From Sphyrna mokarran (lineage: Eukaryota), in assembly GCA_024679065.1 (NCBI GenBank), contig JAGIQG010000014.1, positions 25,482,001-25,546,000 on the forward strand: a DNA stretch of 64,000 nucleotides, in the 5' to 3' direction. Both the position numbers and the translations under genes were made by a program. The notes beneath the pieces were generated by a model that saw nothing but the letters and a program-made list of their open reading frames with translations, was not told the origin of the DNA and made no database searches. Each line of letters opens with the position of its first letter. The first letter of the stretch is position 1. Of this stretch, positions 1 through 23,526 are shown piece after piece.

Positions 1-455
1 TTCATCTGCTTTGAAAGAAGATGTAGATTGATAGTCCTTACAGAGCTATAAGCTGGTTTAAACAAACAAGGTCAGGACATTAGGAAATAATTTGTGTAAA
101 GTTTAATGCCTGAATTGACTTTTGAGCTTGGATTTGGGGGAGTGATCTGGATTAATTCGGCAGATTGTTCAAACTGAATTAAGAAATCAGTAGATTTCTA
201 TGTTTGCCACAGATTGGCTGAGCAGCCTCTTGCATTATGAAATTTGTCTATGAAATTTGATATATCCTGGGTAAATTAAACTTACAAACATAGTATATAT
301 TTCAAAGCAAGAAAACATTTTATTATGTAATTTGAGAAAATCAAACACAACATTGTTGATAAATGTTCAATTAAATGAATGGTATCCTTGAAGTTCGCAT
401 AGTTAATCCATCTGTACCAGCTCTACCCCATTGGCTCTGTCTCAGTCCATCTGTA

Positions 456-687
456 AAAAGTCTCACAACACCAGGTTAAAGTCCAACAGGTTTATTTGGT
501 AGCAAAAGCCACCAGCTTTTGGAACGCTTCTTCCCTTTCATCAGGAGAGTCACCTGACAAAGGGGTAGCAAGCGCTCCAAAAGCTAGTGGATTTTGCTAC
601 CAGATAAACCTGTTGGACTTTAACCTGGTGGTTGTGAGGCTTCTTACTGTGTTTACCCCAGTCCAACGCCGGCATATCCATATCATT
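456..687. mobile_element. Penelope-like terminal-repeat remnant forming an inverted repeat
   Basis: ctcacaacaccaggttaaagtccaacaggtttatttggtagc is followed by its reverse complement. The same sequence flanks the Penelope-like element at 57300-58857, and a smaller hairpin is at about 25940-26045. Confidence 0.65.
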
Positions 688-784
688 CCATCTGTACCAG
701 CTTCACCCTATTGGCTCTGCCCCTGATCTGTCTGTACCAGCTCACCCCATTGGCTCTGCCCAACTCCATCTGTACCAGCTTGTC

Positions 785-1535
785 ATGCCCAATGTTTGGT
801 AGGAAGAATTAAAAATTGGTATATTCCTTAAATGAAGAGAAATTGCTATATAGGGGGATCTGGATGTTCCTAGTACATGAACAACAGAAAGTTAGCATGC
901 AGGTACAGCAAATGATTAAGAAAGCAAATGGATTGATTTAGTTTATCACAAGGAGAATGTAATATTAAAGGAGGGATGTTTTGCTCCAGTTGTATAAGGT
1001 GTTGTAAAACCGCATCTAGATTATGATGTACAGTTTCAATCTCCTTATTTAAGGAAGGACAAACTTGTACTAGAGACAATTCAGAGAAGGTTCACTTGAT
1101 TGACTCCCGGGATGGAGGAAGTTACCTTCAGAGGAAAGGTTGGAAAGGCTGGGGGTTGGAATTTAGAAGATTGAGGAGTGATCTTCCTGAAATATATAAT
1201 ATCCTGAAGAATCCCGATAGAGTGGATACTGGAAACATCATTCCTCTTGTTGGAGAGACTAGAACAATTGAAAATTAACAGCTCTCCCATTTAAGACAGG
1301 GACGAGGACATTTTTCTCTGAGTGTTGTGAGTATTTGGCACTCTCTTCCTCAAGAGTGGTGGAGGCAAGGTCATTGAATCTAGTCAAATCTGTGTTAGAT
1401 ATGTTTTTGATCTACAGTGGGGTCAAGGGTTATGGGGGATGATGAGGAATGTGGAGTTAGAGCCATAATTAGATCAGCAATGATCTTACTAAATGGCAGA
1501 GCAGGTTTGAGGGGCTAAATGGCCTAGAGCTCTAA
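785..1535 (+). mobile_element. Decayed CR1-like LINE 3' fragment
   Basis: Degenerate QRDLGV / RPHLEYC / QRRFTR / RRLRGDL-type sequence and a CR1 tail. Confidence 0.75.
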
Positions 1536-1909
1536 AACTTGTGTTGGGATTTATCTCCATCCCATTCCACCTGTACCAGTTCCATCCAGTTGACTCTCCC
1601 CCCAGTCCATCTGTAACAGGTTGATATCATTGACTTTGTTCCATATAAATTAATTCAAAAACATCCATAAGAACATCAAGGCATCCTCAATTACCACAGT
1701 AAAAAAGAAATACCTTATACCAAATATAGTCACCAATATTATTTTTAAAAATTCTTTGATGAGATGTAGACACGATTGGCAAATGCCAACATTTGTTGTC
1801 CGTCCTGAATTGCCATTTCAGAGTGCTGTTAAGAAACAACCACAGTTGCTGAGTTTGGAGTCACGCGTAGGCCAGACCAGGTGAGGGTGGCAGATTTCTT
1901 TCCTTAAAG

Positions 1910-2215
1910 TTTTTAAAGTTTAGTATCACAAGTAGGCTTACATTAACACCACAATGAAGTTACTGTGAAAATCCTCTAGTCACCACATTCCGGCACCCGT
2001 TTGGGTACACTAAGGGAAAATTCTGTATGGCCAACGCACTTAACCAACACATCTTTCAGACTGTAGGAGGAAACTGAAGCACCCAGATGAAACCCATACA
2101 GACACAGGGAGAATGTGCAGACTCCGCACACACAGTGACCCAAATTGGGAATCAAACTCAAGTCCCTGGTGCAGTGAGGCATCAATGCTAAACATTTGGA
2201 CACCATGCTGCTCAC
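1910..2215 (-). mobile_element. tRNA-derived SINE (HE1/V-SINE-like core) nested in an older repeat
   Basis: tRNA-like head, then the core gagtctgcacattctccctgtgtctgtatgggtttc...cctcctacagtc. Confidence 0.75.
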
Positions 2216-2592
2216 AATAAAGAAAGATGTGTTTGTATGACAATCGACAATGGCTTTTCATGGTCATCATTAGGTTCTTAATTCCATGTTTTTATTAAAT
2301 TCAAACCTCACCCTTTGCCGTGTCATTACCCCGGTCCGTGGATTACTGGCCAGTGACAATACCACTGCACCACTGCCTTATGATCCCCATTACACTCTGT
2401 AGAACCGATAATATTTGAAATGATTATAGGACATTGAAAAGGGAATCTTTTGGTGACCTTTAGATCATTGCTCCTCAAGGTTCTTTCTTAGTTATTGCTG
2501 GGGACGGGGGAGGGGGTGGGGGCGGTTGGATTCAGGTCATTTAGCAGCCAGAGTAAATCCTCCCACTTGGCTAAATATTTCCCATCACTTAC

Positions 2593-2937
2593 CTGGTTTC
2601 ACCTTCAGTGTGACTCCACAGCCACACCAGTCGTCAGCTTCCTTCTCGTTTTGACAAAAGTACCTGGCCGAATCCTCTGGTTTCACGTTGTCGATTTTTA
2701 AAGAGTATCTGCTCTCACCGGAAAAACGGGGCTCGATCCCCGGCATTCGGGTAAAACTGCTGGATCCCTCTCTCCAGGACACGAGCCACTTGACCTCGGT
2801 GGAGCCGGGAGGTACATAACCCCACTTGGTAAGGAGATTAGTCAGGCTGATTCCACACTGGAGTGTCACCGATTCTCCCTCCTGACTGAACACAGTGCTG
2901 GATGGTAGGTGTAGAGCCGTGTGGGAGAAAAGTGGGT
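2593..2937 (-). CDS. Gene B exon 2, V-set Ig domain with built-in J-like G strand
   Basis: Acceptor ttccatttcag|AC. Translation has EGESVTLQC (B-strand Cys), KWGY (C-strand Trp), RFSG, SLKIDNVKPEDSARYFC (F strand), then WCGCGVTLKV. 345 nt, phase 1-1. Confidence 0.92.
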
Positions 2938-3078
2938 CTGAAATGGAAAATAAAAGAGATGGGAATTGTTGAGGAGAATTCCAGCGAGGACAACGTGAAG
3001 ATGAAGACAATGTAGGGAGCTTGGCTCTTTACCCGTCTGGAGGACAATCAGAAAGAACGACCAAAACATCCTTTGCAT
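2593..3078 (-). CDS. IgSF gene B (5' part: leader + non-rearranging VJ-type V exon); paralogue of the + strand receptor, continues left of the window
   Basis: Leader exon 3033-3078 and V exon 2593-2937 are joined by a 95-nt GT-AG phase-1 intron. The V exon ends at a phase-1 donor (CCA G|gtaag). No downstream exon is recognisable in 1-2592. Confidence 0.85.
3033..3078 (-). CDS. Gene B exon 1, signal peptide MQRMFWSFFLIVLQT (an in-frame ATG at 3084 would add MK)
   Basis: Hydrophobic leader ending ACG G|gtaaag. Same length (46 nt) and phase as the gene A leader MQGMICSFLLLALQL. Confidence 0.85.
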
Positions 3079-4619
3079 TTTCATCTGGGTGGCTGCTTCC
3101 AGTACACGCCGAGGAGAAGGTCAAGTGCAGTTTTGTTCCCCAGCGGAGGATTTGGGTCATGTATTTCCTTCTTCTTTTATCAGCTTTGCGACTTAAAAGT
3201 TGCGAAGATTGCATCTAAATCTGCAGTCGACACTGGATAGAGACCTTCTGATCTCCACCCTTTCCCACAAATTGCTTTCTGGTGTCAGAAATATCACGTT
3301 AGCAGCAAGAAAACTGGAGACACTTGTTTTTGTCGACCTGGTCTTGTTAAAGTGAAAAGAGTAAATGTGGAGACTTAGTTCAACTACGTTGCAAGAGCAG
3401 GATAATGGGAAGACAAGTTGAGTTTGGCAAGTTCTCCAGAGAAAGAGTGACCCACACTTAAGTGAATTCTCAGGAAAGTACTGGTACTGTCTGCAAAAGA
3501 AGGTTATTTTTAACCTTCAGTAGTTTTGCCAAATTGGTGAAATTATTCATTTACAGAAGGGGAAAGATAACCAGTTTCTTGCAATACTGAGCCACTAATA
3601 GAATATGAGAATCAGTGTCTGAATATGTTCTGTAAGAAGTTTTCACATTTTTCAGTGTTAGATATTCCATGTTATTTCAAAACTTTCACCTGTGAATTAA
3701 CTTACTGGGTATCTGTTATAAATAAATTCTTTTGAGTGATTGCAGCAAATTGCTCCATAAGATATCAGACTAATACTTTTAAATATTTACTTTAAACATA
3801 TAGATTGCCACAATTGCATTAAGAAAGTATAACTTTGTTTATTTACCAAGAACATGATTCATGTTAGACTGGGTGTAATTTAACAACAACATTATATAGT
3901 TACCTTTAGCAGAATAAAGTGCTTCACAGGAGCAATATAAAATTAAATTTGACAGCAAGCTACCTAAGGCAATCTTAGGCCGCAAGGTAAAATGCTTGTC
4001 ACTGAGGTAACATTTAAGAATCATCGAGGAGGAGGAAATAAAGTCAAAGAGAATAGAGATTGGACAACTAAAAACATAGCTACCAAATGCAATGGAGTGA
4101 TTAAAATCAAGACGCCTGCATTAGATGAGTGCAAACACCATAAAGGTTTGTGAGTCTGGAGGAGATTACAGAGATACCACGGGGGATTTGAAAGCAAGGA
4201 CAAGAATTTTAAATTTAAATTGCTTGACCGCGAACCAATGTTAATCAGCAATTACAGGGGTGATAGGTGAATGGGATTTAGTGTGAGTTATGTCATGAGC
4301 AGTAGAATTTTGGATGATCTCAGATTTACAGAAGTCAGTTACACTCAGAATCATGGCACAATGTGTAATGGGGAGATTGTGCTCTCTCCTCAACTTGCAC
4401 TGGGCCCAGTGATTGTGTTGGTGCCTGTTAAGCAGGTCCACACCAATAGTTGGTGCTGATGGTAGAGAGTGCAAGGTTTTCCATGATCTGTGAGTGAGGG
4501 AGTGGTTTCTTTGGCAGGCTTGTGGGCGAGGCCCAGGAGGACACAGTCAAAAACATGGTGATGGAGCCACTGAGAGTGGCCCAGTAGGAAACTTGGGAAC
4601 CAGTACTAACTGCTATGGA

Positions 4620-6372
4620 TTTTTTTTTAGAGCAACACAGCACGGGAAACAGGCCCTTCGGCGCAACGAACCCGCGCCGCCGTCATAACTATATAGTAAC
4701 AATTCCATTATCCTATTCTAATTTTAGGTTATTCCTAATATGGAAGAGTCTCAATGTAGGGACAATTTGTTTCCCAATCAGCCTAAGAGCAAATTTTTGG
4801 GATGTGGGAGGAAACCGGAGCGCCCGGAGAAAACCCACGCAACCACGGGGAGAACGCACAAACTCCCGCAGACACCGGCCCAATTCCAAGTGTCTGCACA
4901 GCTACAGCGATAGTCACTGAGCTGTCATGGTGCCCTTCAGATGGTCCAGATAATGCACTCATTTACGACATGAAGCACCAGGCAACCCATGAATCAACAT
5001 CCAAGAGCTGTCCTCGCACCACCTGCCGAATGCATGCTCCTTGTTTGTCAAGTATGGACCGAATTACCTGTGAAAAAAAAAGCCATAGTTAAACAGTCCT
5101 ACTATATCCCTCTATCTGCATAACGCTCATGTGGCTGTCCAAGAGACCCTTAAACAGCCCTAGCGTGCCTGCTCCCACCACCTTACTCGGCAGTGCATTC
5201 CACACTCCCACTACCCTTTGTGTGAAAAACTGCCCTCTAATATTCGTCTTATACATAGCCCCCCTCACCCTAAGGCCCTGACCCCTTGTCCTATCCATTC
5301 CTGAAGGTGGAAAAAGTTTACCACCATTTACTCTATCTATACCCCTTATAATCTTATACACCTCTATGAGATCCCCTCTAAGCAGACGTCTTTCAAGGGA
5401 AAACAACCCCAGTCTATTTAATCGTTCCTCATAAGACAGTCCTTCCATACCAGGCAGCATCCTGGTAAACCTCCTCTGCACTCTCTCCAAGGACTCCACA
5501 TCCTTCCGATAGTACGGCGACCAGAACTGGACGCAGTATTCCAAGTGAGGCCTAACCAACGTTCTATACAATTGCAACATCAAACTCCTACTCTTGTATT
5601 CTATACCCTTTTCTATGAAAGCTAACATACTATACGCTTTCTTTATCACCTTCTCCACCTGTGAAGACACCTTCAGAGACTTGTGAACCTGCACCCCCAA
5701 GTCTCTCTGCGTCTCTATACTCCGAATAGTTTTACCTTTTATCCTATAACTCTCTTCTACATTTTTCCGGCCAAAATGCATCACCTCGCATTTATCCGGA
5801 TTAAATTCCATTTGCCATCTATCTGCCCAGTCTACCAACCTATCTATGTCCTGTTGTATTGCCTGGCACTGCTCCTCTGTACCCGCCAATCCAAGCATCT
5901 TAGTGTCATCAGCAAATTTGCTGATCTCACCACCTACCCCAACTTCCAAGTCGTTTATGTAGACCACAAATAGAAGAGGACCTAGTACTGAGCCTTGTAG
6001 CACTCCACTAGTGACAGGCTTCCAGTCGGAGAAAGAGCCTTCCACTACTACCCTCTGTCTCCTCCTCCTGAGCCAGTTCTCGACCCATCGACATACCTGG
6101 CCCTGTATCCCATGCGCCTTCACCTTCTTTATCAGTCTACCATGAGGAACCTTGTCAAACGCCTTACTGAAATCCATGTAGACGACATCAACAGCATGTC
6201 CTTCATCAACTGTTTTTGTCACTTCTTCAAAAAATTCCACTAGATTTGTAAGACAAGACTTCCCCTTGACGAAGCCATGCTGCGTATCCCTGATCAGATC
6301 GCAGCACTCCAGATGCTCATACATCCTGTCCCTGAGGATCCTCTCCATTAGCTTACCTATAACTGAAGTCAA
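4620..6372 (-). mobile_element. Young 5'-truncated CR1-like LINE (RT domain intact) with long 3' UTR
   Basis: ORF with QHGF, DFSKAFDKV, GSVLGPLLF, FADD and RPHLEYC. A-rich tail. Nearly identical to the copy at 15586-17415. Confidence 0.95.
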
Positions 6373-7569
6373 CTGAACTATAACTGAAGGATTGATGAAG
6401 ACAGAAGGGATAGCATGAAATACCCTGAGTTGAAGATGTCCCACAACATTGAAGATGCAATTTATGATTTAGATGGTAAACTCACTTGTGTCTCACTTGT
6501 TTCAGTGAATCAATTAACAAGCGTGCCACGGCTTGGGACACTTCAGCTTGGAGATAAGCTCCCAACATGTTGGAAATCTTTTTATATATTAACTTTTTTT
6601 GAGTACAGTAAAGAGTCGCTGAACTGGAAATTTAATGCATTTTTATTCTGCAATACATCTGGGAAGCTAGTTAAGCCTTATTTTCAGAATCTTTACCAGC
6701 ATGTTTAGTTACCTCCCATTGGTAAATTGCTTGCGTACATCGTCAAAAGCTTTTTTTTGTCTCTGTTCTTGTTACTCTTCAAAACTGTCCCATCTCCCCT
6801 TCCTCTTGAAGCTTACTACCAACTACTCACTACTAAGTTTCTGACTTCTAAGCTTTATTTCTCCAATATGATGATGAAAGAATGTTTCCTCTTGTGGGAG
6901 AGATTAAACATATTTAAAACATCAGGGGTCTTCCATTTTGAACCGGAATGAGAAGAAAAGCTTTCTTTCACTGGGCCATGAGTTCTTAGGTTCATAATGC
7001 CCTCAACTGCAATATCATTACCAAATGCTGTGTTCCTCGTTCAAATCACACCTTGTTTAAATCATTTCAGTCTAATGTCTACCTTATCTGCACTACCAAA
7101 TTACCAAGGACATTCTTTGTGATTATGCACATGACTCATTAAACCTTCTTGTCCGTATTGAAGTCCCCTAATTGTCTCCTATTCCTCATTTAGATGCTTC
7201 CTTTCAGTTAGATAACCTGCATGTGTTGGGACTAACTTCTACACGTATCCAAAAACACCACTACCTCTCTTCCACCACATTTAACTTCATTACCACTGCC
7301 GCAGCAGTTAGCTTTTTATCTGAAATTGTCAGGAATGTATCAGACCTTTTTCCAACTTGGCAAGACTTCACTTTTCTTTCCTTCAGTCCTGCACTGAATA
7401 TCAGTGTAGATATTTTTTGTGGAGTGGAGTGTGAGCCTGAAACATTCCAGCTCATTGGCAAGAGTTCAGCAGGTTAACAGTTCAAATTTTAAGTTTGTTT
7501 ATTAGTATTACAAGTAGGCTTACATTAACATTGCAATGAAGTTACTGTGAAATCTCCTTGTAGCCACAC

Positions 7570-7975
7570 TCCTGGAACACATTGCCACGGAGGACTGTGG
7601 AGGTCAGATCATTGAGTGTCTTTAAGACAGAGATAGATAGGTTCTTGATCAATAAGGGGATCGAGTATTATGGGGATAAGGATCATATCAATCATGATTG
7701 AATGGTGGAGCAGACTCCATATGCTAAATGGTCTAATTCTCTCTCTCAGAGGGTAATGAATCTGTGGAATTCCTTACCACAGAGGGACGTAGAGGCTGAG
7801 TCAGTAAGAATGTTCAAAGCAGAGATGGACAGATATTTAATCAGTAAGGGATTCAAGGATTATGGGGGATACGGTGGGGAAAATGGAGTTGAGGATTATC
7901 ATATCAAATCAGTCATGATCTAAATGAATAGCGAGCAAACTCGATGGGCTGAACGGTCCATTTTTGCCCCTGTAT
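7570..7975 (+). mobile_element. Two tandem CR1-like 3'-end fragments
   Basis: SQRVMNLWNSLPQ...FKAEMDRYL is a typical CR1 C-terminus; tails are repeated. Confidence 0.7.
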
Positions 7976-8103
7976 CGCGGAAAGCAGAACCATTCATGCT
8001 GATATAGCAGAAAGGAAATTCAAGAATCACCCTCCCTTGAGCCACAGAACGTCACTTGAATTTCCCAGTCGGGCTAAGCTGAACTGGGCAAACCAAGCTG
8101 GAA

Positions 8104-8149
8104 ATGCAGGGGATGATCTGCAGCTTTCTCCTGCTCGCCCTGCAGTTGG
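8104..8149 (+). CDS. Gene A exon 1, signal peptide MQGMICSFLLLALQL
   Basis: ATG at 8104, hydrophobic core, donor TTG G|gtaagc, 85-nt intron to the V exon. Confidence 0.88.
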
Positions 8150-11100
8150 GTAAGCAACAACCCTACTGCTCCCCCCAACAAAAATGTTTCTTTCCTCCAC
8201 TTGCTTGAATATTTCTGTCTGTCTTTCTTTACAGATGCGGTGTTATCTAACGCTAATTTGAGGATTGAGCAGACAATTGTGAACGGCCGAGAGGGAGAGA
8301 CGGTGAGACTGGGATGTACAAGCAGCAGGAAGGAAAATGATAGCCTGATGCGGTGGGGTTACGTACCCGCTAACTCTACAAAAATCAAATGGCTGGTGTT
8401 CTTGAGTCCGGGATCTACAAATTTCGCTCGAATGGAAGAGATCGAGAGCCGTTTCTCCGGAACCAACGAGAGCAACTTAACCTTAAAAATCGACGACTTG
8501 AAACAGACGGATTCAACCAAATATTACTGCCAGAGTGAGCTTGGCAAAAGCTGGTGCGGCTGTGGAATGATTCTGAAAGTGAAAGCAGGTAAGTGGAGAT
8601 TCATTAGGGGGAAATAATGATTGATCTCAAATGTTAACGCCACAACCGGAGAGGAGTTTCCCCGTGTGCTATCTGTAAGGCTGTGTCAACTCTCCCCAAA
8701 CAGCTAAGAGGGAATTTGGTTGATGAGTTCATCTATTCACTGTCAAGTACCTCGCAATATGGTAGCCCTCCCCCCGACTGACTGCAGAAACTTGCAACAG
8801 TTATAAACTGAATCACGGGATAGTTTATTGCTCAATCTTCGATGGTCTTAGGAAGCAATTGAAGCAATTCACTCTATAAGAGTCATCAGTTCTACACATC
8901 TAATCTTTATTGGATGCTGTATTGGTTCTGATGTGTTCTTGTTATTGTTGTAGCTTGGGTCTTTTCAACCAGCAACTTAGTTGTATGTTATGTGGGACAT
9001 ATTAGTGATCTATATCTGGGTATGCAGAAGACAATTTCATAGCTTATCGATGATACAAAACTCAGAAGTATTGCGAACTGTAAGGAGGACCATGTAGAAC
9101 TTTAAAAGGGTACAGACAAGTCGTTGGAGTGGGTAAATAGGTGGCAGATGAAGTTTAATGCAGAGAAGTGTCAAGTGATGCATTTTGGTAGAAAGAACTT
9201 GGGGAGACAAAAATAAATAAGGGATAAAATTCTAAAAGAGGTGCAGAGCAGAAGGATCTTTTTTATTATGCATTTGTGGAACTTAGTGGATGACCAGTAT
9301 TTATTGCTCATTCCTTGTTGCTCTTGGAGGGCAGTTGAGAATCAACTGCATTGCTGTGGCTCTGGAGTCACAAGTAGGCCTGACCAATGGCAGATTTTCT
9401 TCCCTAAAGGACATTAGTGAACCAGATAGGTTCTTTCAAGAATTGACAATGGTTTTATGGTCATTAATAGATTCTTAGTGCCAGTTTACTGTATTCAAAA
9501 TTCACCATCTGACATAGCAAGATTCGAATCAGGTCCCCAAAACATTAACTGAGTTTCTGGATTAATAGTCTAACAATAATACCACTAGGCTATCACCTCC
9601 CCAAAGACCTGGACCTTTCTGTGAAAAGATCATTGAAGATGGCAGGACAGTTGGAGAGAGCATTAATGAAACATATGGAATTCTGGGCTTTATTAATAAG
9701 AACATAAAATATAAGAGCAAAAAGATTATACTGAATTTATACAAGATATGATTTAGACCTCAACTAGAATATTGTGTATAGTTCTGTGCACCACATTACA
9801 GAAAGGATGGGAACACATTTGAGAGAGTGCAGAAGTGGTTTTATAACAATAGTTCTAGGGATGAAAAACCTCAGTTATAAGGATAGACTGGAGAAGTTGG
9901 GACTGTTCTCCCTTAGAGCAAAGACTAAGAGGATAATTGATAGAAATGTTAAAAATCATGAGAGGGTTGGGCAGAGTAGATATGGAGAAACTGTTGCCAT
10001 TTATAAAAAGGATCACAAACGAGACAGCACAGATTTAAAGAGATTTCAAAAAGAAAAAAATTTTTCATACAGCAAATGGTTTGAGTCTGGAATTCACTAC
10101 CTAGAATTGTGGTGGAGACAGGTTCATTGAACTTTAAGATGGCAATAGATGATTATTTGAATAGAAGTGATATGCAGGACTCAGGGAAAAAGCAGGGGAA
10201 TGGCATCAATTCACAATGCCTGTTTGGAGAGCCAGTACAGACACAAGGGGCCAAATGGTCTTCTGCCCCGTAACAATTTCCTCATTTTGTGAGGCAATGG
10301 TATAAAGCTCTTCCGGAGAGCATCCTGGGTTGAGCGTCCTCCTTGTGCACTAGAATTCAATGGTCAAATGTAGACATTAATACCAAGTCAGGTGTTATCA
10401 TCAAAAGTATCAACATCTGAAGTGTGCACACAAAAGTTACAAGAATTAAATAAACAAACCAATCAACAGAACGAGCACCAAATTAGACTTATTTTAGCCA
10501 CAGCTTTAAAATTAGGGTTAGAAAATATAAGGGCAAAATATAGCAAAGCCACTCAAACAATGATATAAGCTTGCACATTGTGAATGTTACAATAGCAGGA
10601 AATTCAGCTAACCAGTTGTTATCTTCTAATCTTAGCCATCATGCCAAAAGCACCTTCAGTTTATCTCTTGCATCCATCTCCTGAGAAAATGTCACAGCAA
10701 ATTATCAGCAAACTTCTTTGTGTGGTGAGCAATTTCTACCCAGAAGCTATCTCTGTCTCTTGGTACATTGGCAGCACCCAAATATCTACGGGGATTTCTA
10801 CTTCGGGCATACTGATGGAATCTGAAAACAGTTACACAACTATCAGTGAACTGGTAGTATCAACCTTTCAATGGGTCAGTGGACTTCGTTACACCTGTGT
10901 TGTTTCACATCAAGCCCTGTCTTCTCCCATCAGAAAAATGATCAGTATTAATGGTAAGTGAAACAAATAAGTTTATTTGAAATCTCTTACAAATTAATTA
11001 TCAACAGCTACCTTTTAAATTAAGAATGCAGAGATTAATACCAGTTAGAGAGCAAGATACTGTCAGGGGACTTATCTATTGCTTGGTTGGCATTTTGGTC

Positions 11101-14100
11101 TATCTTATTTTTGCAAAAAATGTACTTTAGTAGTAAAATATCTATAAGAATACTACAAACATTTCAAAATGGCCATCACACAAAGTGCAATAATATTTGT
11201 GTTTTCTACATACATCACAATGCACTCTGAGGTACTTCAATACAGTCAAAGAAACACTTATTTATTGTGTCACAAGTAGGCTTACATTAACACTTCAATG
11301 AAGTTGCTTTGAAAATCCTTCAGTCGCCACACTCCGACACCTGTTTAGGTATACAAAGGGAGAATTTAGCATGGACCTAACAAGTACGTCTTTTAAACTG
11401 TGGGAGAGGACCAGAACACCCAGAAGAAACCCACACAGACACAGGGAGAACTTGCAGACAGTGACCCAAGCCGGGAATCGAACCTGGGTCCCTGGCACAG
11501 TGAGGGAGCAGAGCTAACAACTGAACAACCATGATGCCCCACAATAAAGAATGGGTTTGTACAACAATCAACAATGACTTCATGGTCATCAATAGAGGCA
11601 GCGGTGCTAACTAGCATGCCACCAAAACCAAATAACCTTATCTGTCATGCACAGGAATAAAGCACAAAGTCAAATGTACAAATTAAGTACAACATAAAAA
11701 AGAGAATGCTGGAAGAGCTTTCTTCCTGAAGCGTGGCAGTACGAGGAATATATTACTGGTGTGTGGTGGAACAAGAAACATGCATGGGTTTTAGTAAATT
11801 ACAGGACAGTTCCTTGTCAATATATAGGATTGAGGGATGTTAAAAATGCACCATAGGAAGACTAAATTGGTAGATAGATGAACCCTTGGGTAAGGCAGTT
11901 GATGTAGTGTATATGGATTTTAGCAAAGCGTTTGATAAGGTTCCCCATGGTAGGCTACTGCAGAAAGTGCAGATGCATGGGATTGAAGGTGATTTAGCAG
12001 TTTGGATTAGGAATTGGCTAGCTGATAGAAGACAGAGGGTGGTGGTTGATGGGAAATATTCAACCTGGAGTGCAGTTACAAGTGGTGTACCTCAAGGATC
12101 TGTTTTGGGGCCACTGCTGTTTGTCATTTTTATAAATGACCTAGATGAGGGTGTAGAGGGTTGGATTAGTAAATTTGCTGACGATACCAAAGTGGGGGGA
12201 GTTGTAGACAGCGAGGATGGATGTTACAGTTTGCAGAGGGACATAGATAGGTTGCAAAGCTGGGCCGTGAGGTGGCAAATGGAATTCAATACGGATAAGT
12301 GTGAGGTGATTCACTTTGGTAGGAATAACAGGCATATGAAATATAGGGCTAATGGAAGGACCCTTAATAGTGTTGTCGAGCAGAGGGATCTTGGGGTACA
12401 AGTACATAGCTCTTTGAAAGTTGGCACCTAGGTTGATAAAGTTGTTAAGAAGGCGTACGGTGTGTTAGCTTTTATTGGTAGAGGGATTGAATTTAGGAGC
12501 CGTGAGGTTATGTTACAACTGTACAAAACTCTGGTGCGGCCGCACTTGGAGTATTGCGTACAGTTCTGGTCGCCGCATTATAAGAAAGATGTGGAAGCAT
12601 TGGAAAGGGTGCAGAGGAGGTTTACCAGGAAGTTGCCTGGTATGGTGGGAAGGCCTTATGAGGAAAGGCTGAGGGACCTAAGGTTATTTTCATTAGAGAG
12701 AAGAAGGTTACGCGGTGACCTAATTGAGGCTTATAAGATGATCAAAGGACTGGATGGGGTGGATAGTGAGAGCCTTTTTCTCGGATGGTGATGACCAACA
12801 CGAGGGGACATAACTTTAAATTAAGAGGTGGTAGTTATAGGACGGACGTCAGAGGCAGGCTCTTTACACAGAGGGTGGTGAGGGCGTGGAATGCCCTGCC
12901 TGCAGCAGTTGTGGACTCGCCTACTTTGGGGGCATTCAAATGGTCGGTAGATAGGCATATGGATGATATTAGAATAGTTTAGGTTTGAGGGTCCACTGGC
13001 CGGCGCAACATCGAGGGCCGAAAGGCCTGTACTGCGCTGTAATGTTCTATGTTCTAAGACCTCTTCTCGCTTGGATCTATTATTATGTTACTATGGCATA
13101 GAAGTTGTCTAGAAAATATTGTTTTAGTATTTATACCAATATTTAGAATTTGAATAATTATTCAAATAAATAAGATTTTTTTCTCAAGATTTCATCAGAA
13201 ATTATTCTCGTTACTCTTTGTGGAATTTCACTGTGTGAAAATTAAATGCCACATTCACTAACAAGTGCGTTCACTGGTTCTGAAGTGCTTTGGTATGGAG
13301 ACATAAGTTCTGAATTCTGCAAAATATGACTCTGAACATTAACCGTCTCTATTCATTTAGATCCAATTCCACCATCTATCTATGTTTTGCCACCAACCTC
13401 TGAAGAGATTGTTATGGAGAAGACAGCAACAATTGTATGCCTGGCTGTTGGATTTTATCCTGAAAGCATTTTCTTTAGGTGGCTGGTTAATAATCAGGTT
13501 AAAGAAGCTTCCAGTTCGCAAACCTTTCCTCCAGTTCTAAATGCAAACGGGAGCTACACTTCCAGAAGTGAGTTAACAGTTGTTGTGGACAAGTGGAAAT
13601 CTGCCTCCGTGTTCACCTGTGAAATTCAACATGTTTCGCTCTCCTTTCCTGTAAGACACAGTTTGAGGAAAAGAAATGGTAAGGACGTTGCAATCTGATT
13701 GGCTTTATTTTCTCCATAATATCCTAATTAACATTAAATGTCTTTAAACAACAATCTCTTACAAGTTTCTTCCAAAATTTCAATTCCTCTTTCCTACCAA
13801 AACCTTCAAAATGCTTTCATTTCTAAAAGGTCTGAGTCCACTTAGACATGGCATCCTCCTCCTCTTTCAGGTACGGTGCACTAGGAGGTTGTTGGTGACC
13901 ATGAAGTTCCATTGGACTGGCCTATGTTTATGCTATGTTAATGCTTGGCAATATACTGCAGTGGTTTGCTATTGCCTCCTGCAGCGTGACTGACCAGGAA
14001 ACTCTTTACTGCCTGCAGTCAGATCTACTGGAAGGATTTACAGGCTGATAATGAACTTGTTTGATTACAGTATACATGAACCTTTCATGGCCCTCAAGCT

Positions 14101-17100: not shown

Positions 17101-20100
17101 GACACTTGGAATTGGGCCAGTGTCTGCGGGAGTTTGCGCGTTCTCCCCGTGGTTGCGTGGGTTTTCTCCGGGCACTCCGGTTTCCTCCCACAACCCAAAA
17201 ATTCGCTCTTAGGCTGATTGGGTAACAAATTGTCCCTATGGTGAAAATTTTCCATATTAGGAATAATATATATATTATTATATAGGAATATTAAAATAGG
17301 ATAATGTATTTGGTATGATGGCGGCGCGGGCTCGTTGGGCTGAAGGGCCTGTTTCCCGTGCTGTGTTGCTTAATAATAAAAAAAAAATAATGAAAAAAAA
17401 AATAAAATAAAAAAAAGTGCATCTCAAGCACGAATGCTGGGTGCTCGGCAGTCATCTGCATTGCAGTGCTACACTTTGGCGTTGGTGTTGTCCAGTTAAT
17501 TTAGCTCATTTGTTATCACCACTACAATGGCTGATTTCTGGTATCACAGAATACGGTTTATCAGTTTGTAGAGGCAAATTTAAGCCAGGATTGATGGTAT
17601 AGCACCCAGTTCTGACCCAGGACCATGGAATAGAATGGATGCAATAAAAGTTATTTTGATGAGTTGTTATTGGCACACTTATTTAGTAGTGTGGGAGATG
17701 CCATATCTGCATAAATACAAGATTTTACATCTTCATTCATGTCATCTGCATTGTGGGCATGGCTTGAAGATGGTCAGTTTGGCAGCATGATACATCATTC
17801 ATGATCAATGGCATCATGAGAAGCAAGTTTGCAGGTGACAGCAAGAATGGATAATTTTGAAGAAGGTGGTTGTAGGTGACAGGAAGATATAGATAGGTTG
17901 GTGAAATGGGCACAGCAGTGGCAAATGGTATTTATCCCAGATAAGTCCCAAAGTGACATTTTAGAAGAAGTAACAAGGGTGTATTTAATGAATAACAAGA
18001 CATTAGGAAGCTCAAAGGAACAAATGGATCTTGGGGTACTTAGTCACAGATCCTTGAAAGCAGGCAAGCATGTGAATAACATGGCTAAGAAGGTATATGA
18101 CACACTTGTTTTTATCAGCCCTGGCATGGAGTATAAGAAAAAGGAGGTAATGTTGGAGCTGTACAGAACATTGGTTAGGCCACAGTTGGAGTACTGTATG
18201 CAGTTCTGGTCACTTCACTCTAAGAAGAATGTGATAGCATTAAAGGGGTTACAGAGGAAGTTCACCAGGATGTTGCCTAGGATGGTGCATTTGAACTATA
18301 AGGAGACACTAGATAGGCTAGGATTGATTTCTCTAGAGCAAAAAATGCTGAGGGTATGTAAGATTATGAAGGGTATGGGCAGGCTGAATTTGGAGCAGCT
18401 GTTCCTGTTAGTTGAAGGGTCAATCACGAGGGGACGTAGTTTTAGGGTAAGGAATTGGACATTCAGAAGAGATCTGAGAATTGTTTTTCACTCAGAAGGA
18501 GGTGGGAGTGTGGAATGCACTGCTTGGGCTTGTAGTGGAGGCCTGAAACCTTACAATCTTCAAAAAGTATTTGAAACATCATAACCTTCAAAGATGTGGA
18601 ACGAGTGCTGGAAAATGAGATTAGTGCCGCTTTAGTAATAGTTATTGTTGGTGCAGACTCAACGAGTCTTTCTGCACTGTATGACTTATCTTCATCTCAT
18701 TCAGAATGGCTTGAATGTCATGGGCTTCCTCTTCCTCAGAGATTGGAGCTCTGCCTGTGGCTTTGCTGTCATCTAGTTGAAGGCTCCTCCACTGTGCGAA
18801 TGTTATGCAGTATGCAGCCAACAATAACTATTCTTGAAACCCTTGCTGGAGAATATTGGAGAATTCCCCCTAACTAATGGAAGCATTGGAACCCGATCTT
18901 TCAAATCCCAATGGCCTGCTCGATGATGTTCCTGGTGATAATATGGCTACTGTTATAATTTTCTCTACTGCCAATTATGGATTCTTAAAAGGGTTGTTAT
19001 CTACGTTCTGAGGAAGTAACTCTTGTCCCTTAAGGAGTAATTCACATACCTGGATAGGTCGCTAAAATAGATTGGGGAGTTATGAGTTCTTTAGTGTGAA
19101 GGACTCATGGTAGTTGCCTGGGAAACTTGCACACACTGATTATGGTCGCAAACCACCTGCACATCAATCGAGTGGAATGATTTACGATTCACGAAGGTGA
19201 GTTGAGCTTTTAGGGAAAACATGAGTGGAGTCAATGATACCCTGCATCCAGAGGAAACCATCAATCCTGACAAAGGCTATGCTCAAAATCCATGCCAAGC
19301 TAACAAGTTCTCCCACATGAGCCTCTCCATCCACAATCACATACTGTTATTCTCATCTACAAGAGCTACTGCTTCATAGCAAAAAAGTCAGCCATTGTGT
19401 GTTTTATCCGCTGTTAGAGTCATCAGGTTGTAACTGCAATGCACCCCAATATTAAGTGCACTCCATATCTTGGCTCTCAAGTTCTGAATGTCTAATCGAT
19501 TCTGCTTTATTGCAAAATTATTGATGCTGTGTGACCAGGATACACTCTGCCCTCTGTCCTCACTTAGTATGTTTTAAATGCATTTGATCTGATGTATGTG
19601 ATAAAGCTGTAACAATTGATTTAATTTCTTATCTAATAATGTGTTCCTGTCTTTGCTGTAGATGATTATATTCAGGCACCTGTCATCCAACTGATCTCTC
19701 CCCCTCTTGATGCAGCCTCTGCGAGGCTAACTGTTGTGATAAGTTGTTTGGTGTCAGACTTTTACCCTGCTGCTATCTCTGTGACTTGGAGAGATGAGAA
19801 TGGGCCAGTGGATACAGGACTGATACAGTTTGCAGTGGCTTTGGGCAGTAACAGCACCTACCAGACAGTGAGCCAGCTCACCGTGCCAACAGCAGAGTGG
19901 GAGAATAAAGGCACTTACTGGTGTGAGGTGAAACATGTGTCTCTTGAACAGCCAATGCTGAGAGCAGTCAGCAAGGATCTGGGTAAGATCTACTTTCATG
20001 TGCTTGTGTGTATATAAGTATCTGAATAGGAAGTTGAGGTGCCTGTGTGTGAATGATGACATTTGCAAGATGAGTTTCAGAATGTTTGAGTTGATGGGGT

Positions 20101-23100
20101 TTGCAAGTGTGGTCGGTGTGGGTGTAGTTGGGGCAGGGATGGTTTTATGGATGATGTATGATAAGGGATGGAAGAGTTAACAATTCATTTGTAACCTGGA
20201 CTCCATGAATATAGCTCTGGGACCATTTATACTTTCTGTAGAAGTCAGTGGTTTGAGGAAAAAGACTTTCAAAGCAGCAGAGAGGGGAAGTGTGAATCTA
20301 ACTGTTAGTTTCATATATGCCTTGGTTTACACATAGTGTGAGTATTAAATTGTAAAGATCAGTTTAGGAGATTGTGTGGTGCAGTGCTGGGTCCCTATTT
20401 CTCAGCATGAAGCTTTGGGTTTAGGTACCTCTTCAGGATTTGATGGCCATAGAAGTATGTCAAATATGGTCAGACAGGATGACGAGCAGCCTGTAGATCC
20501 TGCCAATGCACCTACTAATAGTGGGTGGTAAAAGTGGCATAGGACAGATCCCTACTCACCCATACCAGACAAGACTATGGCAAACCATTGGATTGGTTAT
20601 TATGCTTCACAATGGAAGTCGATGGTTACCAATATCCTCTTAGGCCATGATACCTGGAGGAGAAGGAAAATCAAATTAAAGCCAGTTTAATATATTCCTC
20701 TACCAAAAAGCCTCGCCACTTATTCCTCAATCAAGAAATTATTTAATTCCTATCATAACTCTGCCCTATTTGAAAATAGATCTATTGACTCCTTTTCTTA
20801 AAAGCAATGATGTCCGATGGAAACTTAAGAATGATGGCTCCGCTGTGGACTTTTGCTGTCGTGGGAGGGTCACTTTTAATTATTGCTACTGTTATTCTCA
20901 TCTACAAGAAAACGGCATCTTCCACCTGCAAGATAGGTGAGATTGTTCTTTATTGCCCTATGTGTATAGTTGAAACATTGGCACAATTTAACACAAGTAC
21001 TGTACCACCACTTCCCATAAAGGACTCCATCCCATTCTCCCAATTTCTCCACCTCTGTTGTATCTGTTACAATTATGCTACCTTTTGAAATGGACATGTC
21101 TTTGTTTTTCCTGAATTGAGAGGTCTCCCCCCCCACCCCACCACTCCACAACCTCCACCTCCCCCCCCAATCCCTCCAAACCACCCACCCCCCCATGACT
21201 GACAATACACTTAACCATGCTTGACCCATCTCCCTCACCTCTGCCCTCACCCCTTCAACCTCCCTCCCAGAATCATGACATGGTTCCCCCTTGTCCACAC
21301 TTTTCTCCCCACCAGCCTCGGCATTCAAAAGATCATCTTTCGCTACTTCCGCCAATTCCATGATTCCAATAAACCGTTGTTTGAAATCTAACTGTGAAGA
21401 GAAAGTTATATCAATACACATTTGTAAATTATTGTAATAACATTTAGCAAATTACAGTTTCTTCCTATGTTTCCATTTCTTAACACAGCCAACTTCAGGG
21501 AGACATTAAGCCTGGATACCAGTCCGGAATCCATCTATCAAAATGTCAATTATAAGGTACTTGGACCATAGTCGCGTGTTTGAATCATGGGGGAGGTGTG
21601 TCTGTGTCATACATTTCAGGGAATCTCTTTGAAGTATAAGACATGACTGTTACAGTCATGGTGATTTACATTGCACCCTTGCACAGATCTAGAGAACGTA
21701 TGCACTTCATTTAGATATCGAGACATATTAAGTCAGATTATTTTGAATTATCTGATCAATTTTTAATCAGAAAGTCACTCTTTGAGTTTATAAACTCAAT
21801 CTACTGGATAATTCAGATTTTTGTTCAAACACCAGCAATGAATTTTTAACAGATGGCAAAAATAATTTGAAGGGTTTCTATTCTGCTAAATACACAGCCT
21901 GTTCATCTTAGCAGTTAAGCTTTTGCGAATGCTGCTGTTCTGTTATTCCAGTGTGGTTCTGAATGTAGTTTTCATGATTGATTAAACTAAAAAACAGAGT
22001 AATATTATATCTTAACTGAGATCAGAGAAACATCTATCTTCCGACTCTCAGACAGCAGCCTCCAACGAAAGACCAATCTTCACACAGATCTTAGGGGATG
22101 GGGGAGCAGAAAATACCTCCTGCCTTTTGCAGATCTCTGGCGAAGTATCTATTTTCTAGCAGGTCTCAGACTTCAGTTTCCAGACAGAGAAACAGCTGAT
22201 TCTCCTTTTCAAATTCAAACAGCAACTGCCTGCTTGTCTCTCTGCAAGCCTAGTTCCACCTGTTTACATGACTTTCTTTTTGTGTAGCAGCCAAATGAAA
22301 CTCTACACTGAAACCATAGGGGACAACCCAAAGTAAAACAAAATTGCATTAACTCAGATTAAAATGAATACCCGAATAACTGGGAACAATTATTCTTCAA
22401 CATGCAGGCTGCTGGTTGTCGACAAATTGGCACTGTTTAAGCAGAGTTGAATTTTAACATTTCCTTCACAAGAAACATGGCATAAATACATTTCTTAAAG
22501 GTACAGTAGTGTCACATGTTAACTTCAGTCGACTTCTTTCCAGGCTTTATTCCTTGAAATAATTTTGGTTTTGTCATAGTATTGCTGATTCAGTGTTACA
22601 ATTTTCATCTGCCATGTGACTCCTGGTCAGTGCAAGACAAATCTTTGATTCCTCTCACTGTTCCGAGGTGGCACAATGGTTAGCATTGCTGCCTCACAGC
22701 ACCAAGAACTCATGTTCAATTCCAGCCTTGGGAGTTTGCACTTTCTCCCCATGTCTCTGAGTGCTCCAGTTTCCTCCCACAGTCCAAAGATGTGCCAGTT
22801 AGGTCAATTGGCCACACTAAATTGCCCCTGAGTATCCCAAGATAGATAAGTTAGGTGATTAGCAGGGTAAATAGGTGTGGTTATGGGGAAAGGGCCCGGA
22901 TAGGATGTTCTGTCAGAGAGTCTGTCTCTGCCAAACAGCTGCCTTCTGAACTATAGAGATTCTATAATGCTATGCTTAAAGGTTACATCAGACATAATTT
23001 GACATTATTATGCTTTCCAACAATTGTGAAATGAGTAATGAGATGATGGATAAATGTAAAAGGGAAGACAGCTTCATATTTTGGATGTCAGCCTTCCTGC

Positions 23101-23526
23101 AGGGATTTTCCAGCTCTTCCTACCAGCAGGATCTTCAGGTCCTGCCAAAGGTGAACGCCCACATGCCACGGGTTTCCTGGTGGTAGGACAGACGATGCAC
23201 TTGAAATATCATAAATGTGGTGGTTGCGGGTGGGGGGGGGGGCGTTGCTGGAAAATCTCACCTGAGTTGCCTCCGCTGCCGGAAAACACACTGCAGTAAG
23301 ATCAGAAAGTCCCAAACATTTTACAAATGCCAATCCACTATGTTTCCAGCGTTTTTTGTGTTTATTCCCAAATTGTACTGTGAAATTTTGAAATCACGAT
23401 GTTTATTATTGTTTTATAGGTTTACTTCTAAAGCTCTTTCTTTTATTTCAGTCAAACACACCTGAGGGATCAGCAAGGGTTGGTGATTTCGCCAACAACT
23501 ATGTTATGGAAACACGCTGCATTTAA
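8104..23526 (+). CDS. IgSF gene A: non-rearranging V-C1-C1-C1 transmembrane receptor with ITIM-like tail, 543 aa; join(8104-8149,8235-8588,10636-10953,13361-13678,19662-19982,20805-20936,21489-21556,23452-23526)
   Basis: Eight exons with canonical GT-AG sites and compatible phases (1,1,1,1,1,1,0) give an open 1632-nt frame ending in TAA. One domain per exon. Confidence 0.88.
8235..8588 (+). CDS. Gene A exon 2, V-set domain with J-like G strand
   Basis: Acceptor tttctttacag|AT. Contains EGETVRLGC, MRWGY, SRFSG, LTLKIDDLKQTDSTKYYC and WCGCGMILKV. Donor GCA G|gtaagt. 354 nt. Confidence 0.93.
9015..10290 (+). mobile_element. Decayed CR1-like LINE with a ~350-bp repeat inserted at about 9257-9604
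   Basis: DDTK...WQMKFNAEKC...LSYKDRLEKLGLFSL with frameshifts and stops. Confidence 0.75.
10636..10953 (+). CDS. Gene A exon 3, C1-set domain 1
   Basis: PSVYLLHPS...LLCVVSNFYPEAISVSW...YTCVVSHQAL matches the C1-set signature (CxxxxFYP, W, YxCxVxH). Sites cttag|CC and AAT G|gtaag. 318 nt. Confidence 0.92.
11259..11540 (-). mobile_element. tRNA-derived SINE
   Basis: B-box ggttcgattccc and V-SINE-like core. Same tail as the copy at 1910-2215. Confidence 0.78.
11885..13056 (+). mobile_element. 5'-truncated CR1-like LINE
   Basis: VDVVYMDFSKAFDKVPH, GVPQGSVLGP, FADD, one in-frame stop, (gttctat)n tail. Confidence 0.93.
13361..13678 (+). CDS. Gene A exon 4, C1-set domain 2
   Basis: PSIYVLPPTSEEI...ATIVCLAVGFYPESIFFRW...NGSYTSRSELTV...FTCEIQHVSL, strongly Ig-constant-like. 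Sites atttag|AT and AAT G|gtaag. 318 nt. Confidence 0.93.
15586..17415 (+). mobile_element. Young 5'-truncated CR1-like LINE (443-aa open RT) with long 3' UTR and A-rich tail
   Basis: NYRPVSLTS, QHGF and FADD motifs. Same family as 4620-6372. Confidence 0.95.
17815..18690 (+). mobile_element. Decayed CR1-like LINE fragment
   Basis: WAQQWQM...LYRTLVRPQLEYCMQFWS. Confidence 0.85.
19085..19400 (-). mobile_element. PIF/Harbinger transposase remnant
   Basis: GFLWMQGIIDSTHV followed, after a frameshift, by FVNRKSFHSIDVQVVCD. These match the HARBI1-type GxIDxTH and NRKxxHSxNVQxVCD motifs. Confidence 0.7.
19662..19982 (+). CDS. Gene A exon 5, C1-set domain 3
   Basis: APVIQLISPP...VISCLVSDFYPAAISVTW...TYQTVSQLTVPTAEW...YWCEVKHVSL. 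Sites ctgtag|AT and CTG G|gtaag. 321 nt. Confidence 0.92.
20805..20936 (+). CDS. Gene A exon 6, stalk + transmembrane segment
   Basis: AMMSDGNLRMMAPLWTFAVVGGSLLIIATVILIYKKTASSTCKI: hydrophobic stretch followed by KK stop-transfer residues. Sites ttttcttaaaag|CA and ATA G|gtgag. Confidence 0.88.
21010..21365 (+). mobile_element. Penelope-like retroelement fragment
   Basis: KDSIPFSQFLHLCCIC resembles the Penelope RT C-terminal SIPxSQFLRLRRIC motif. Confidence 0.6.
21489..21556 (+). CDS. Gene A exon 7, cytoplasmic exon with ITIM-consensus SIYQNV
   Basis: Acceptor ttccatttcttaacacag|CC, translation ANFRETLSLDTSPESIYQNVNYK, donor AAG|gtact. Phase fits exon 6. Confidence 0.75.
22662..22965 (+). 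mobile_element. HE1-like SINE
   Basis: tRNA-like head ggtggcacaatggttagcattgctgcctcacag, core ggagtttgcac...ttcctcccacagtccaaagatgtg. Confidence 0.78.
23452..23526 (+). CDS. Gene A putative last exon SNTPEGSARVGDFANNYVMETRCI*
   Basis: Strong pyrimidine tract ctctttcttttatttcag, phase 0, contains a second Tyr, ends TAA. No homology support, so less certain. Confidence 0.6.
   Translation, partial: SNTPEGSARVGDFANNYVMETRCI

Follow-up and report, generated by a model that had tools for sequence, protein, structure and literature searches.

A divergent pair of non-rearranging VJ-C1 genes in Sphyrna mokarran as a probable third branch of the shark UrIg family

Two paralogous variable-domain (V) genes of the shark Sphyrna mokarran that point away from each other raise the question of whether they encode the two chains of one receptor, a pair of opposing receptors or two unrelated products. 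The genes, here named A (plus strand) and B (minus strand), lie in a stretch of 64,000 nt on contig C446 (G000:C446:25482001-25546000, hereafter the window), and B, which runs past the left window end, was completed using 200 kb of left flank. A first-pass annotation made from the letters of the window had described them as an old, maintained duplicate pair and had proposed either a heavy/light- or alpha/beta-like heterodimer or an inhibitory/activating receptor pair, without recognizing the UrIg family in them. The present analysis reveals a real, intact and conserved pair which, judged by its domain sequences, very probably represents a third lineage of the shark UrIg family, beside UrIg and UrIg2, with an architecture that is new for this family. 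The overall reading that we somewhat favor is that of a third-branch, non-rearranging VJ-C1 pair whose products would form disulfide-linked dimers at the cell surface, with A as an inhibitory receptor and B as a non-signaling partner or decoy.

The basic description of the locus given by the first-pass annotation is borne out in most respects. The ATGs at 8104 (A) and 3078 (B) point outward and are 5026 nt apart, the leader and V exons lie at the positions given for them, both V frames are intact and the first introns are short GT-AG introns of 85 nt (A) and 95 nt (B). The V exons, for which 45-50% identity had been estimated by hand, agree at 56 of 114 aligned residue pairs (119 columns; 49% identity), including the blocks WGYVP, KWLV, RFSG, LKID and WCGCG that had been recognized as common to both. 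The alignment score of 263 compares with a mean of -19, a standard deviation of 10 and a maximum of 18 among 1000 shuffles, with two gap positions in the loop of complementarity-determining region (CDR) 1, two following RFSG and one in the CDR3 loop. Of the two proposed 46-nt leader exons, that of A stands, while B possesses an in-frame ATG at 3084, two codons upstream of 3078 (MKMQ...); its leader is probably 52 nt long because the Mustelus orthologue starts with MKMQ and those of catsharks start with MERQ or MESQ. All modeled introns of both genes have AG/GT borders, both reading frames are open and both genes are complete.

The V domains themselves point to the UrIg family. The best full-length sequence match of the A domain is UrIg2 (PDB 9DMX), ranked second overall behind a four-domain diabody and sharing WGYVP and the CxC motif of the G strand, and 9DMX also accounts for the top two of at least 2000 Foldseek matches to an AlphaFold2 model of the B domain (predicted local distance difference test score, 83). 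The G strands of A and B are near-identical, and their CxC motif is present in 9/9 A/B sequences and 6/6 UrIg2 sequences. Identity between A/B and UrIg2 V domains ranges from 28 to 48%, and a V-C1 query against an atlas returned generic immunoglobulin (Ig) clusters only. No site resembling a recombination signal sequence (RSS) was found near either V exon, the two loose matches in the window (18790 and 58327) being far away. Both genes hence show the combination expected of the UrIg family, namely a split leader and a VJ domain encoded in a single exon without RSS. The Ig octamer occurs seven times in the window versus 5.9 times expected, and never between A and B.

UrIg and UrIg2 are the best published candidates for relatives of the gene that the RAG transposon entered (Flajnik et al. 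2025); the portion of that account used here, and for all citations of it below, presents two paralogues, both in regions related to the major histocompatibility complex (MHC), and describes no signaling motif (PMC12227049). Their constant (C) domains group by position (PMC12227049). In a 37-row tree, C1, C2 and C3 of A/B likewise group by position with the UrIg/UrIg2 domains (support 97/96, 97/92 and 95/93, respectively) and apart from 15 Ig constant domains of the S. mokarran genome. A four-domain tree of 14 rows, whose outgroup rows were assembled from different genes per domain, recovered A+B (100/99), UrIg (100/100), UrIg2 (100/100) and the family as a whole (100/99). In a V-only tree with seven outgroup rows, the UrIg family including A/B falls on one side of a branch (97/98).

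Several other placements were considered and rejected. A position of A/B as the first branch of the family was suggested by a V+C1 tree, in which UrIg and UrIg2 grouped with 85/81, but this idea was dropped as the value was 45/0 with four domains and no branch order among UrIg, UrIg2 and A/B was rejected (p-values of the approximately unbiased test, p-AU, 0.49 and 0.28). A/B are not UrIg orthologues, as they possess a transmembrane (TM) exon and their V domains are only 34-39% identical to that of the species' own UrIg, far below the ~80% given for UrIg V domains between species (PMC12227049; PMC10751288). This UrIg gene is located on another contig (G000:C1548:111.43-111.44 Mb), its C3 exon runs into a stop, and by eye ~100 of 116 residues of its V domain match nurse shark UrIg (fig. 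S2 of PMC12227049). Nor are A/B orthologues of UrIg2, since they fall outside the UrIg2 clade in the V and four-domain trees. Catshark UrIg2 (XP_038644097) and catshark B (XP_038651300) are different genes on different contigs, and catshark and whale shark each hold UrIg2 plus a B orthologue; P0125, P0024 and P0020 are accessions listed as UrIg2 in PMC12227049. UrIg2 was not found in the S. mokarran assembly with two catshark queries, for which 11/11 and 148/446 candidates were scored, and its absence is thereby not established. No paper naming a third UrIg turned up in a search outside of which lay the original UrIg, PRARP and Ohta 2019 papers and their supplements, which could mention A/B; the portion of PMC12227049 used here names only UrIg and UrIg2, and the identifiers looked up in its table S1 gave no match. 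Single C exons on C738, C949, C1326 and C993 were rejected as further UrIg paralogues, with no UrIg-type V exon in 30 kb of sequence examined at each. Those at G000:C738:57905725-57906024 and G000:C949:12699732-12700025 are related C exons that read as T cell receptor (TCR)-beta-like, with no V exon found in these 30 kb. At G000:C993:63168700-63173213, a V-like exon that is not UrIg-type precedes a C1 exon; its C strand, WWKLG, is unusual, and this unit is possibly another non-rearranging V-C1 gene.

A comparison with the two known members shows where the new branch departs from them. A/B share with UrIg2 the split leader, the single-exon VJ, a WG(Y/S)VP C strand, the G-strand CxC, a similar uncharged TM, gene conversion of C exons (probable in A/B) and, in A, the order C1-C2-C3 (PMC12227049; PDB 9DMX). 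They differ in forming a separate clade, in being a divergent pair, in having three (A) or two (B) C domains instead of repeated C2-C3 units, and in their location, as UrIg2 is linked to IgH/TCR-alpha-delta (PMC12227049). The V similarity of UrIg2 between species is given as 47-83% (table in PMC12227049). In addition, the tail of A carries motifs resembling immunoreceptor tyrosine-based inhibitory motifs (ITIMs), none of which was seen in UrIg2 tails read by eye. UrIg has the same V-C1-C2-C3 ectodomain plan as A, with domains that group by position, but is secreted, single, MHC-linked and equipped with one G-strand Cys (WSGCG; PMC12227049, PMC10751288).

Gene A encodes leader-V-C1-C2-C3-TM-tail (523 amino acids with the tail read to 21571) and gene B leader-V-C1-C3-TM-stub (392-394 amino acids; Table 1). 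The recovery of C1, C3, TM and last coding exons to the left of the window demonstrates that B is more than an orphan V. A search of B for C2, whether whole or as a remnant, gave only cross-matches to C1 and C3. Its TM helix contains no charged residue (Lys/Arg/Asp/Glu), as is the case for the TMs of its orthologues, and B shows no ITIM, no switch (ITSM) or activation (ITAM) motif of this kind and no Tyr in the tail beyond the juxtamembrane stop-transfer stretch. The cytoplasmic exon of A, in contrast, harbors two putative ITIMs, such as characterize paired receptors, and matches the catshark model P0002 (SIYQNV versus SVYQNV). The DNA likeness of this exon to the last exon of B extends past a possible donor at 21556 (score 98, with 66 as the highest value among 300 shuffles), and the A tail exon is therefore taken as terminal, with its end at 21571. 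B is devoid of the 8 nt that hold the acceptor of A, enters the exon 10 nt later and reaches a stop after three codons; read in the frame of A, it has a Cys in place of the first-motif tyrosine. The stub ending is shared by the Mustelus and both catshark database gene models (P0003, P0120, P0124), and one catshark B database gene model (P0123) skips the TM exon. The acceptor that B uses is retained in A as a second one, located 10 nt inside the tail exon (window 21489-21510), and splicing to it would leave A with a stub tail too.

The two genes are not equally divergent along their length. DNA identity between A and B is 63-68% over leader, V, C1 and TM and 90% in C3, dS is 0.19 in C3 versus 1.07-1.12 elsewhere, and the 150 nt upstream of C3 are 81% identical versus ~60% elsewhere. 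In C3 trees, an A clade appeared in 0% of bootstraps (92% in C1) and was narrowly rejected (p-AU 0.038) and a B clade was not rejected (0.14), with only two A sequences available. Gene conversion between the C3 exons of A and B would be the simplest reading of these patterns.

Outside the C3 exon, the pair appears old. Orthologues were found in Mustelus, two Scyliorhinus species, Chiloscyllium and Rhincodon. In Chiloscyllium punctatum (chiPu_0010574/5) and Scyliorhinus torazame (scyTo_0006167/8), the orthologues of A and B carry consecutive locus tags on one contig, which indicates adjacency only, as gene orientation is not readable from tags. A and B cluster by gene and not by species in the V+C1 tree (98.5/99 and 99/100), and the duplication consequently predates the split of carpet sharks and ground sharks. 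In the V tree, shark and ray UrIg2 sequences make up a single clade that excludes A/B (99/98); the A/B line should therefore predate the shark-ray split, unless rates mislead. Against such great age, no A/B orthologue was found in rays, Heptranchias or chimaeras, in searches of which one gave 113 matches with 15 of their sequences read. The dN/dS ratio of A versus B is 0.36 in V and 0.37 in C1 which, together with the completeness of both genes and their adjacency in two further genera, supports the earlier view that the two copies arose long ago and have been maintained.

Crystallized UrIg2 shows V domains joined via their A and G strands and two inter-chain disulfides (Cys 112-112 and 114-114), C2 domains with hardly any contact and a CH3-like pairing of C3 (PMC12227049). 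The retention of both G-strand Cys in all A/B sequences makes disulfide dimers likely, and by analogy with UrIg2 we expect with good confidence that A and B form them. Rather than assembling as an Fv, their V domains would meet at the edges, linked by two G-strand disulfides, and C3 would pair in the manner of CH3. An A dimer would present paired tyrosine motifs on two tails, and ligand-induced clustering might then lead to tyrosine phosphorylation and the recruitment of SHP-1, SHP-2 or SHIP. The consensus motifs predict, with reasonable but limited confidence, that A is an ITIM-bearing inhibitory receptor. With neither a tail motif nor a charged TM, B would be a decoy or tail-diluting partner: it could dampen or tune A by competing for a related ligand, in membrane-bound or secreted form, or alternatively dilute the tail of A within an A:B dimer. 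From this anatomy, the chances that B regulates A as decoy or partner appear about even, and it is doubtful that the A:B heterodimer is the main form. The best functional analogue may be PRARP1/2, a pair of non-rearranging VJ(-C1) genes of bony vertebrates reportedly described by Fu et al. in 2019, whose V or V-C1 products are said to bear ITIM/ITSM motifs in both tails and to form disulfide-linked homo- or heterodimers. No PRARP sequence was recognized among the A/B search matches looked up. SIRP-alpha and SIRP-gamma, which combine V and C1-type domains, consist of an ITIM-bearing member and a second whose tail is a stub and whose TM is uncharged; A/B resemble them in logic only and are not close homologues by any test applied here.

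A number of observations weigh against this reading. The first ITIM-like motif of A also fits YxN, a Grb2-type consensus, and therefore need not inhibit. As B has no C2, the two chains of an A:B dimer would be offset by one Ig domain, except if C2 were skipped in A. Only two GenBank gene models of A were found, neither of them perfect: P0002 is without leader, part of V and part of C2 and C3, and P0009 is without the ITIM exon. No RefSeq model of A was returned for Mustelus or S. canicula, both of which have B. The TM exon shows a dN/dS of 0.98 on 40 codons. When 10 more varied outgroup V domains were used, with five fragmentary or redundant rows left out, the V-only tree did not recover the family as a clade, nor did it reject it (p-AU 0.445). 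Finally, UrIg and UrIg2 are described as liver and gill products and not as lymphocyte receptors (PMC12227049), so that a structural or adhesive role would be possible for A/B as well.

The alternative that survives best is an obligate A:B heterodimer, alpha/beta-like but non-rearranging, which would be co-expressed from a shared upstream region and held together by G-strand disulfides and matched C3 domains, with A as the signaling chain. The head-to-head arrangement at a distance of 5 kb, the adjacency of A and B in two other genera, their similar G strands and TMs, and the preserved likeness of C3, the CH3-like pairing domain of UrIg2, would all be in line with it. However, C2 is missing from B here and in the Mustelus and catshark models, and a LINE (long interspersed nuclear element) fragment in the 5-kb spacer argues that the latter is not a compact two-way promoter. 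Moreover, UrIg and UrIg2 are homodimers, and conversion between inverted neighbors needs no selection and also affects UrIg2 C exons (PMC12227049), which leaves the obligate heterodimer rather unlikely. A complex prediction of V(A):V(B) scored 0.03 (mark 0.34), but was run without alignments or controls and counts neither way.

Two independent, non-signaling homodimers with UrIg-like roles in matrix or epithelial innate binding or in adhesion would explain why A and B V domains share only half of their residues and why a TM-less B model exists, and would fit the presence of UrIg in extracellular matrix and of UrIg2 in gill and liver (PMC12227049). The Tyr motif of A would then serve trafficking or adaptors, and the pairing would be a duplication relic. 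This is distinctly unlikely given that SxYQNV is kept in both A sequences that have the exon and that B has lost both tyrosine and frame, as an inhibitory/non-signaling split would predict. For inhibitory/activating paired receptors, the motifs of A and the neighboring paralogues would be suitable, but annotation of the left flank largely refutes this part of the first-pass proposal, with an uncharged TM helix in B and its orthologues and no ITAM, and it is now very improbable. Hardly credible, lastly, is a heavy/light-like origin in which conventional Ig or TCR genes, joined in the germline, were copied to another site: databases label B as 'immunoglobulin kappa light chain-like', sharks possess Ig genes joined in the germline (PMC12227049; one was seen in L121) and the V-only tree with 10 outgroups leaves the family unrecovered, but all three C domains side with UrIg/UrIg2, the customary motifs of the C and G strands are replaced by WGYVP and WCGCG, and B has two C domains and a TM, not the single C domain without TM of a light-chain-like partner. 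Of the two-chain or paired-receptor idea, the old maintained pair thus persists, and its heavy/light-like and activating-partner versions do not.

A third lineage of similar depth, located on a contig without the tested MHC-paralogon markers and combining a tyrosine-motif tail with a tailless twin, changes the inputs to the published account of UrIg and UrIg2. It may be that the ancestral V-C1-C2-C3 chain sat in the membrane and signaled, and with the A/B pair the capacity of UrIg-type V domains to heterodimerize can be tested directly. It is conceivable, though unlikely, that A/B are a surviving third pre-RAG precursor branch, as old as the UrIg/UrIg2 split, and constitute a germline two-chain receptor (signaling A and tailless B, matched by C3 conversion) outside the MHC paralogons. 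If true, A/B would be a living illustration of how a UrIg homodimer gave way to a heterodimeric signaling antigen receptor.

Table 1. Features of genes A and B and of the sequence between them (window positions unless a contig is given).
Feature	Position	Strand	Evidence or remark
A split-leader exon	8104..8149 (46 nt)	+	Agrees with the beginning of the Chiloscyllium orthologue (P0009)
A single-exon VJ domain, G-strand WCGCG	8235..8588 (354 nt)	+	Pfam V-set 4e-10; full-length match to 9DMX UrIg2 V, 4.6e-13
A C1 exon	10636..10953	+	Pfam C1-set; groups with first C domain of UrIg/UrIg2
A C2 exon	13361..13678	+	Pfam C1-set; groups with second C domain of UrIg/UrIg2; no counterpart in B
A C3 exon	19662..19982	+	Pfam C1-set; 289/321 nt identical to B C3
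Approximate A-B homogenized tract	19495..20010	+	C3 exon and ~165 nt of upstream intron
A transmembrane exon	20805..20936	+	Helix without charged residue
A cytoplasmic exon, stop at 21569-21571	21489..21571	+	Two ITIM-consensus matches: SIYQNV, VNYKVL
Candidate alternative last exon of A, in frame after donor 21556	23452..23526	+	Picked by eye; no homology support; speculative
LINE-type reverse-transcriptase fragment, spacer between A and B	5092..6468	-	Pfam RVT_1 6.8e-28
B split-leader exon	3033..3084	-	Probable start ATG 3084; second in-frame ATG at 3078
B single-exon VJ domain, G-strand WCGCG	2593..2937 (345 nt)	-	Pfam V-set 7.5e-11
B V-C1 intron, continuing past left window end	1..2592	-	
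B C1 exon, outside window	G000:C446:25481402-25481719	-	Pfam C1-set
B C3 exon, outside window	G000:C446:25478834-25479154	-	Pfam C1-set
B TM exon, outside window	G000:C446:25477640-25477777	-	No charged residue
B last coding exon, outside window	G000:C446:25476119-25476129	-	Homologue of A tail exon

With regard to the genomic setting, none of the following MHC-paralogon markers lies on C446 (0/11 PBC (PBX), 0/4 BET and 0/4 NOD (NOTCH)), all being located on C938, C827 and C1548. Exons of the Ig heavy-chain and TCR types, as assigned by motif reading, are found mainly on C994, C446 not being the Ig/TCR contig. The minor paralogon 12 marker TPI had no match anywhere in the assembly; that both UrIg2 and triosephosphate isomerase were not found hints at regions that are missing from the assembly or poorly searched. 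A P450 exon, presumably CYP26-like by its motifs, is situated ~50 kb to the left (G000:C446:25430603-25430842; L014) and belongs to one of four copies in the genome (on C446, on C1 and, in tandem, two on C738). To the right, three tandem matrin-3/ZNF638-like genes, to be taken as leads only, occupy window positions ~38500-47400 (minus strand) and G000:C446:25575049-25697933, and the last exons of the nearest one enter the window (zf-U1 match at 38504-38968). C1 holds one more P450 copy and one more matrin-3/ZNF638-like copy at a distance of 2.9 Mb from each other, an arrangement suggestive of a different paralogon (human 5q31/2p13).

C1548 carries two PBX, two NOTCH and two BET loci (77.9-79.1, 90.8, 103.3-103.5 and 16.2 Mb) in addition to UrIg and a large IgL cluster near 81 Mb, so that two blocks paralogous to the MHC share a single scaffold, through fusion or a misjoin. 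On C446, a tandem repeat with a unit of ~1.7 kb that is open in three frames occurs ~21.5-23.2 kb left of the window (L011), and an intronless, divergent actin-family open frame (Pfam Actin 1e-110) is present at G000:C446:25315401-25316588 (L025).

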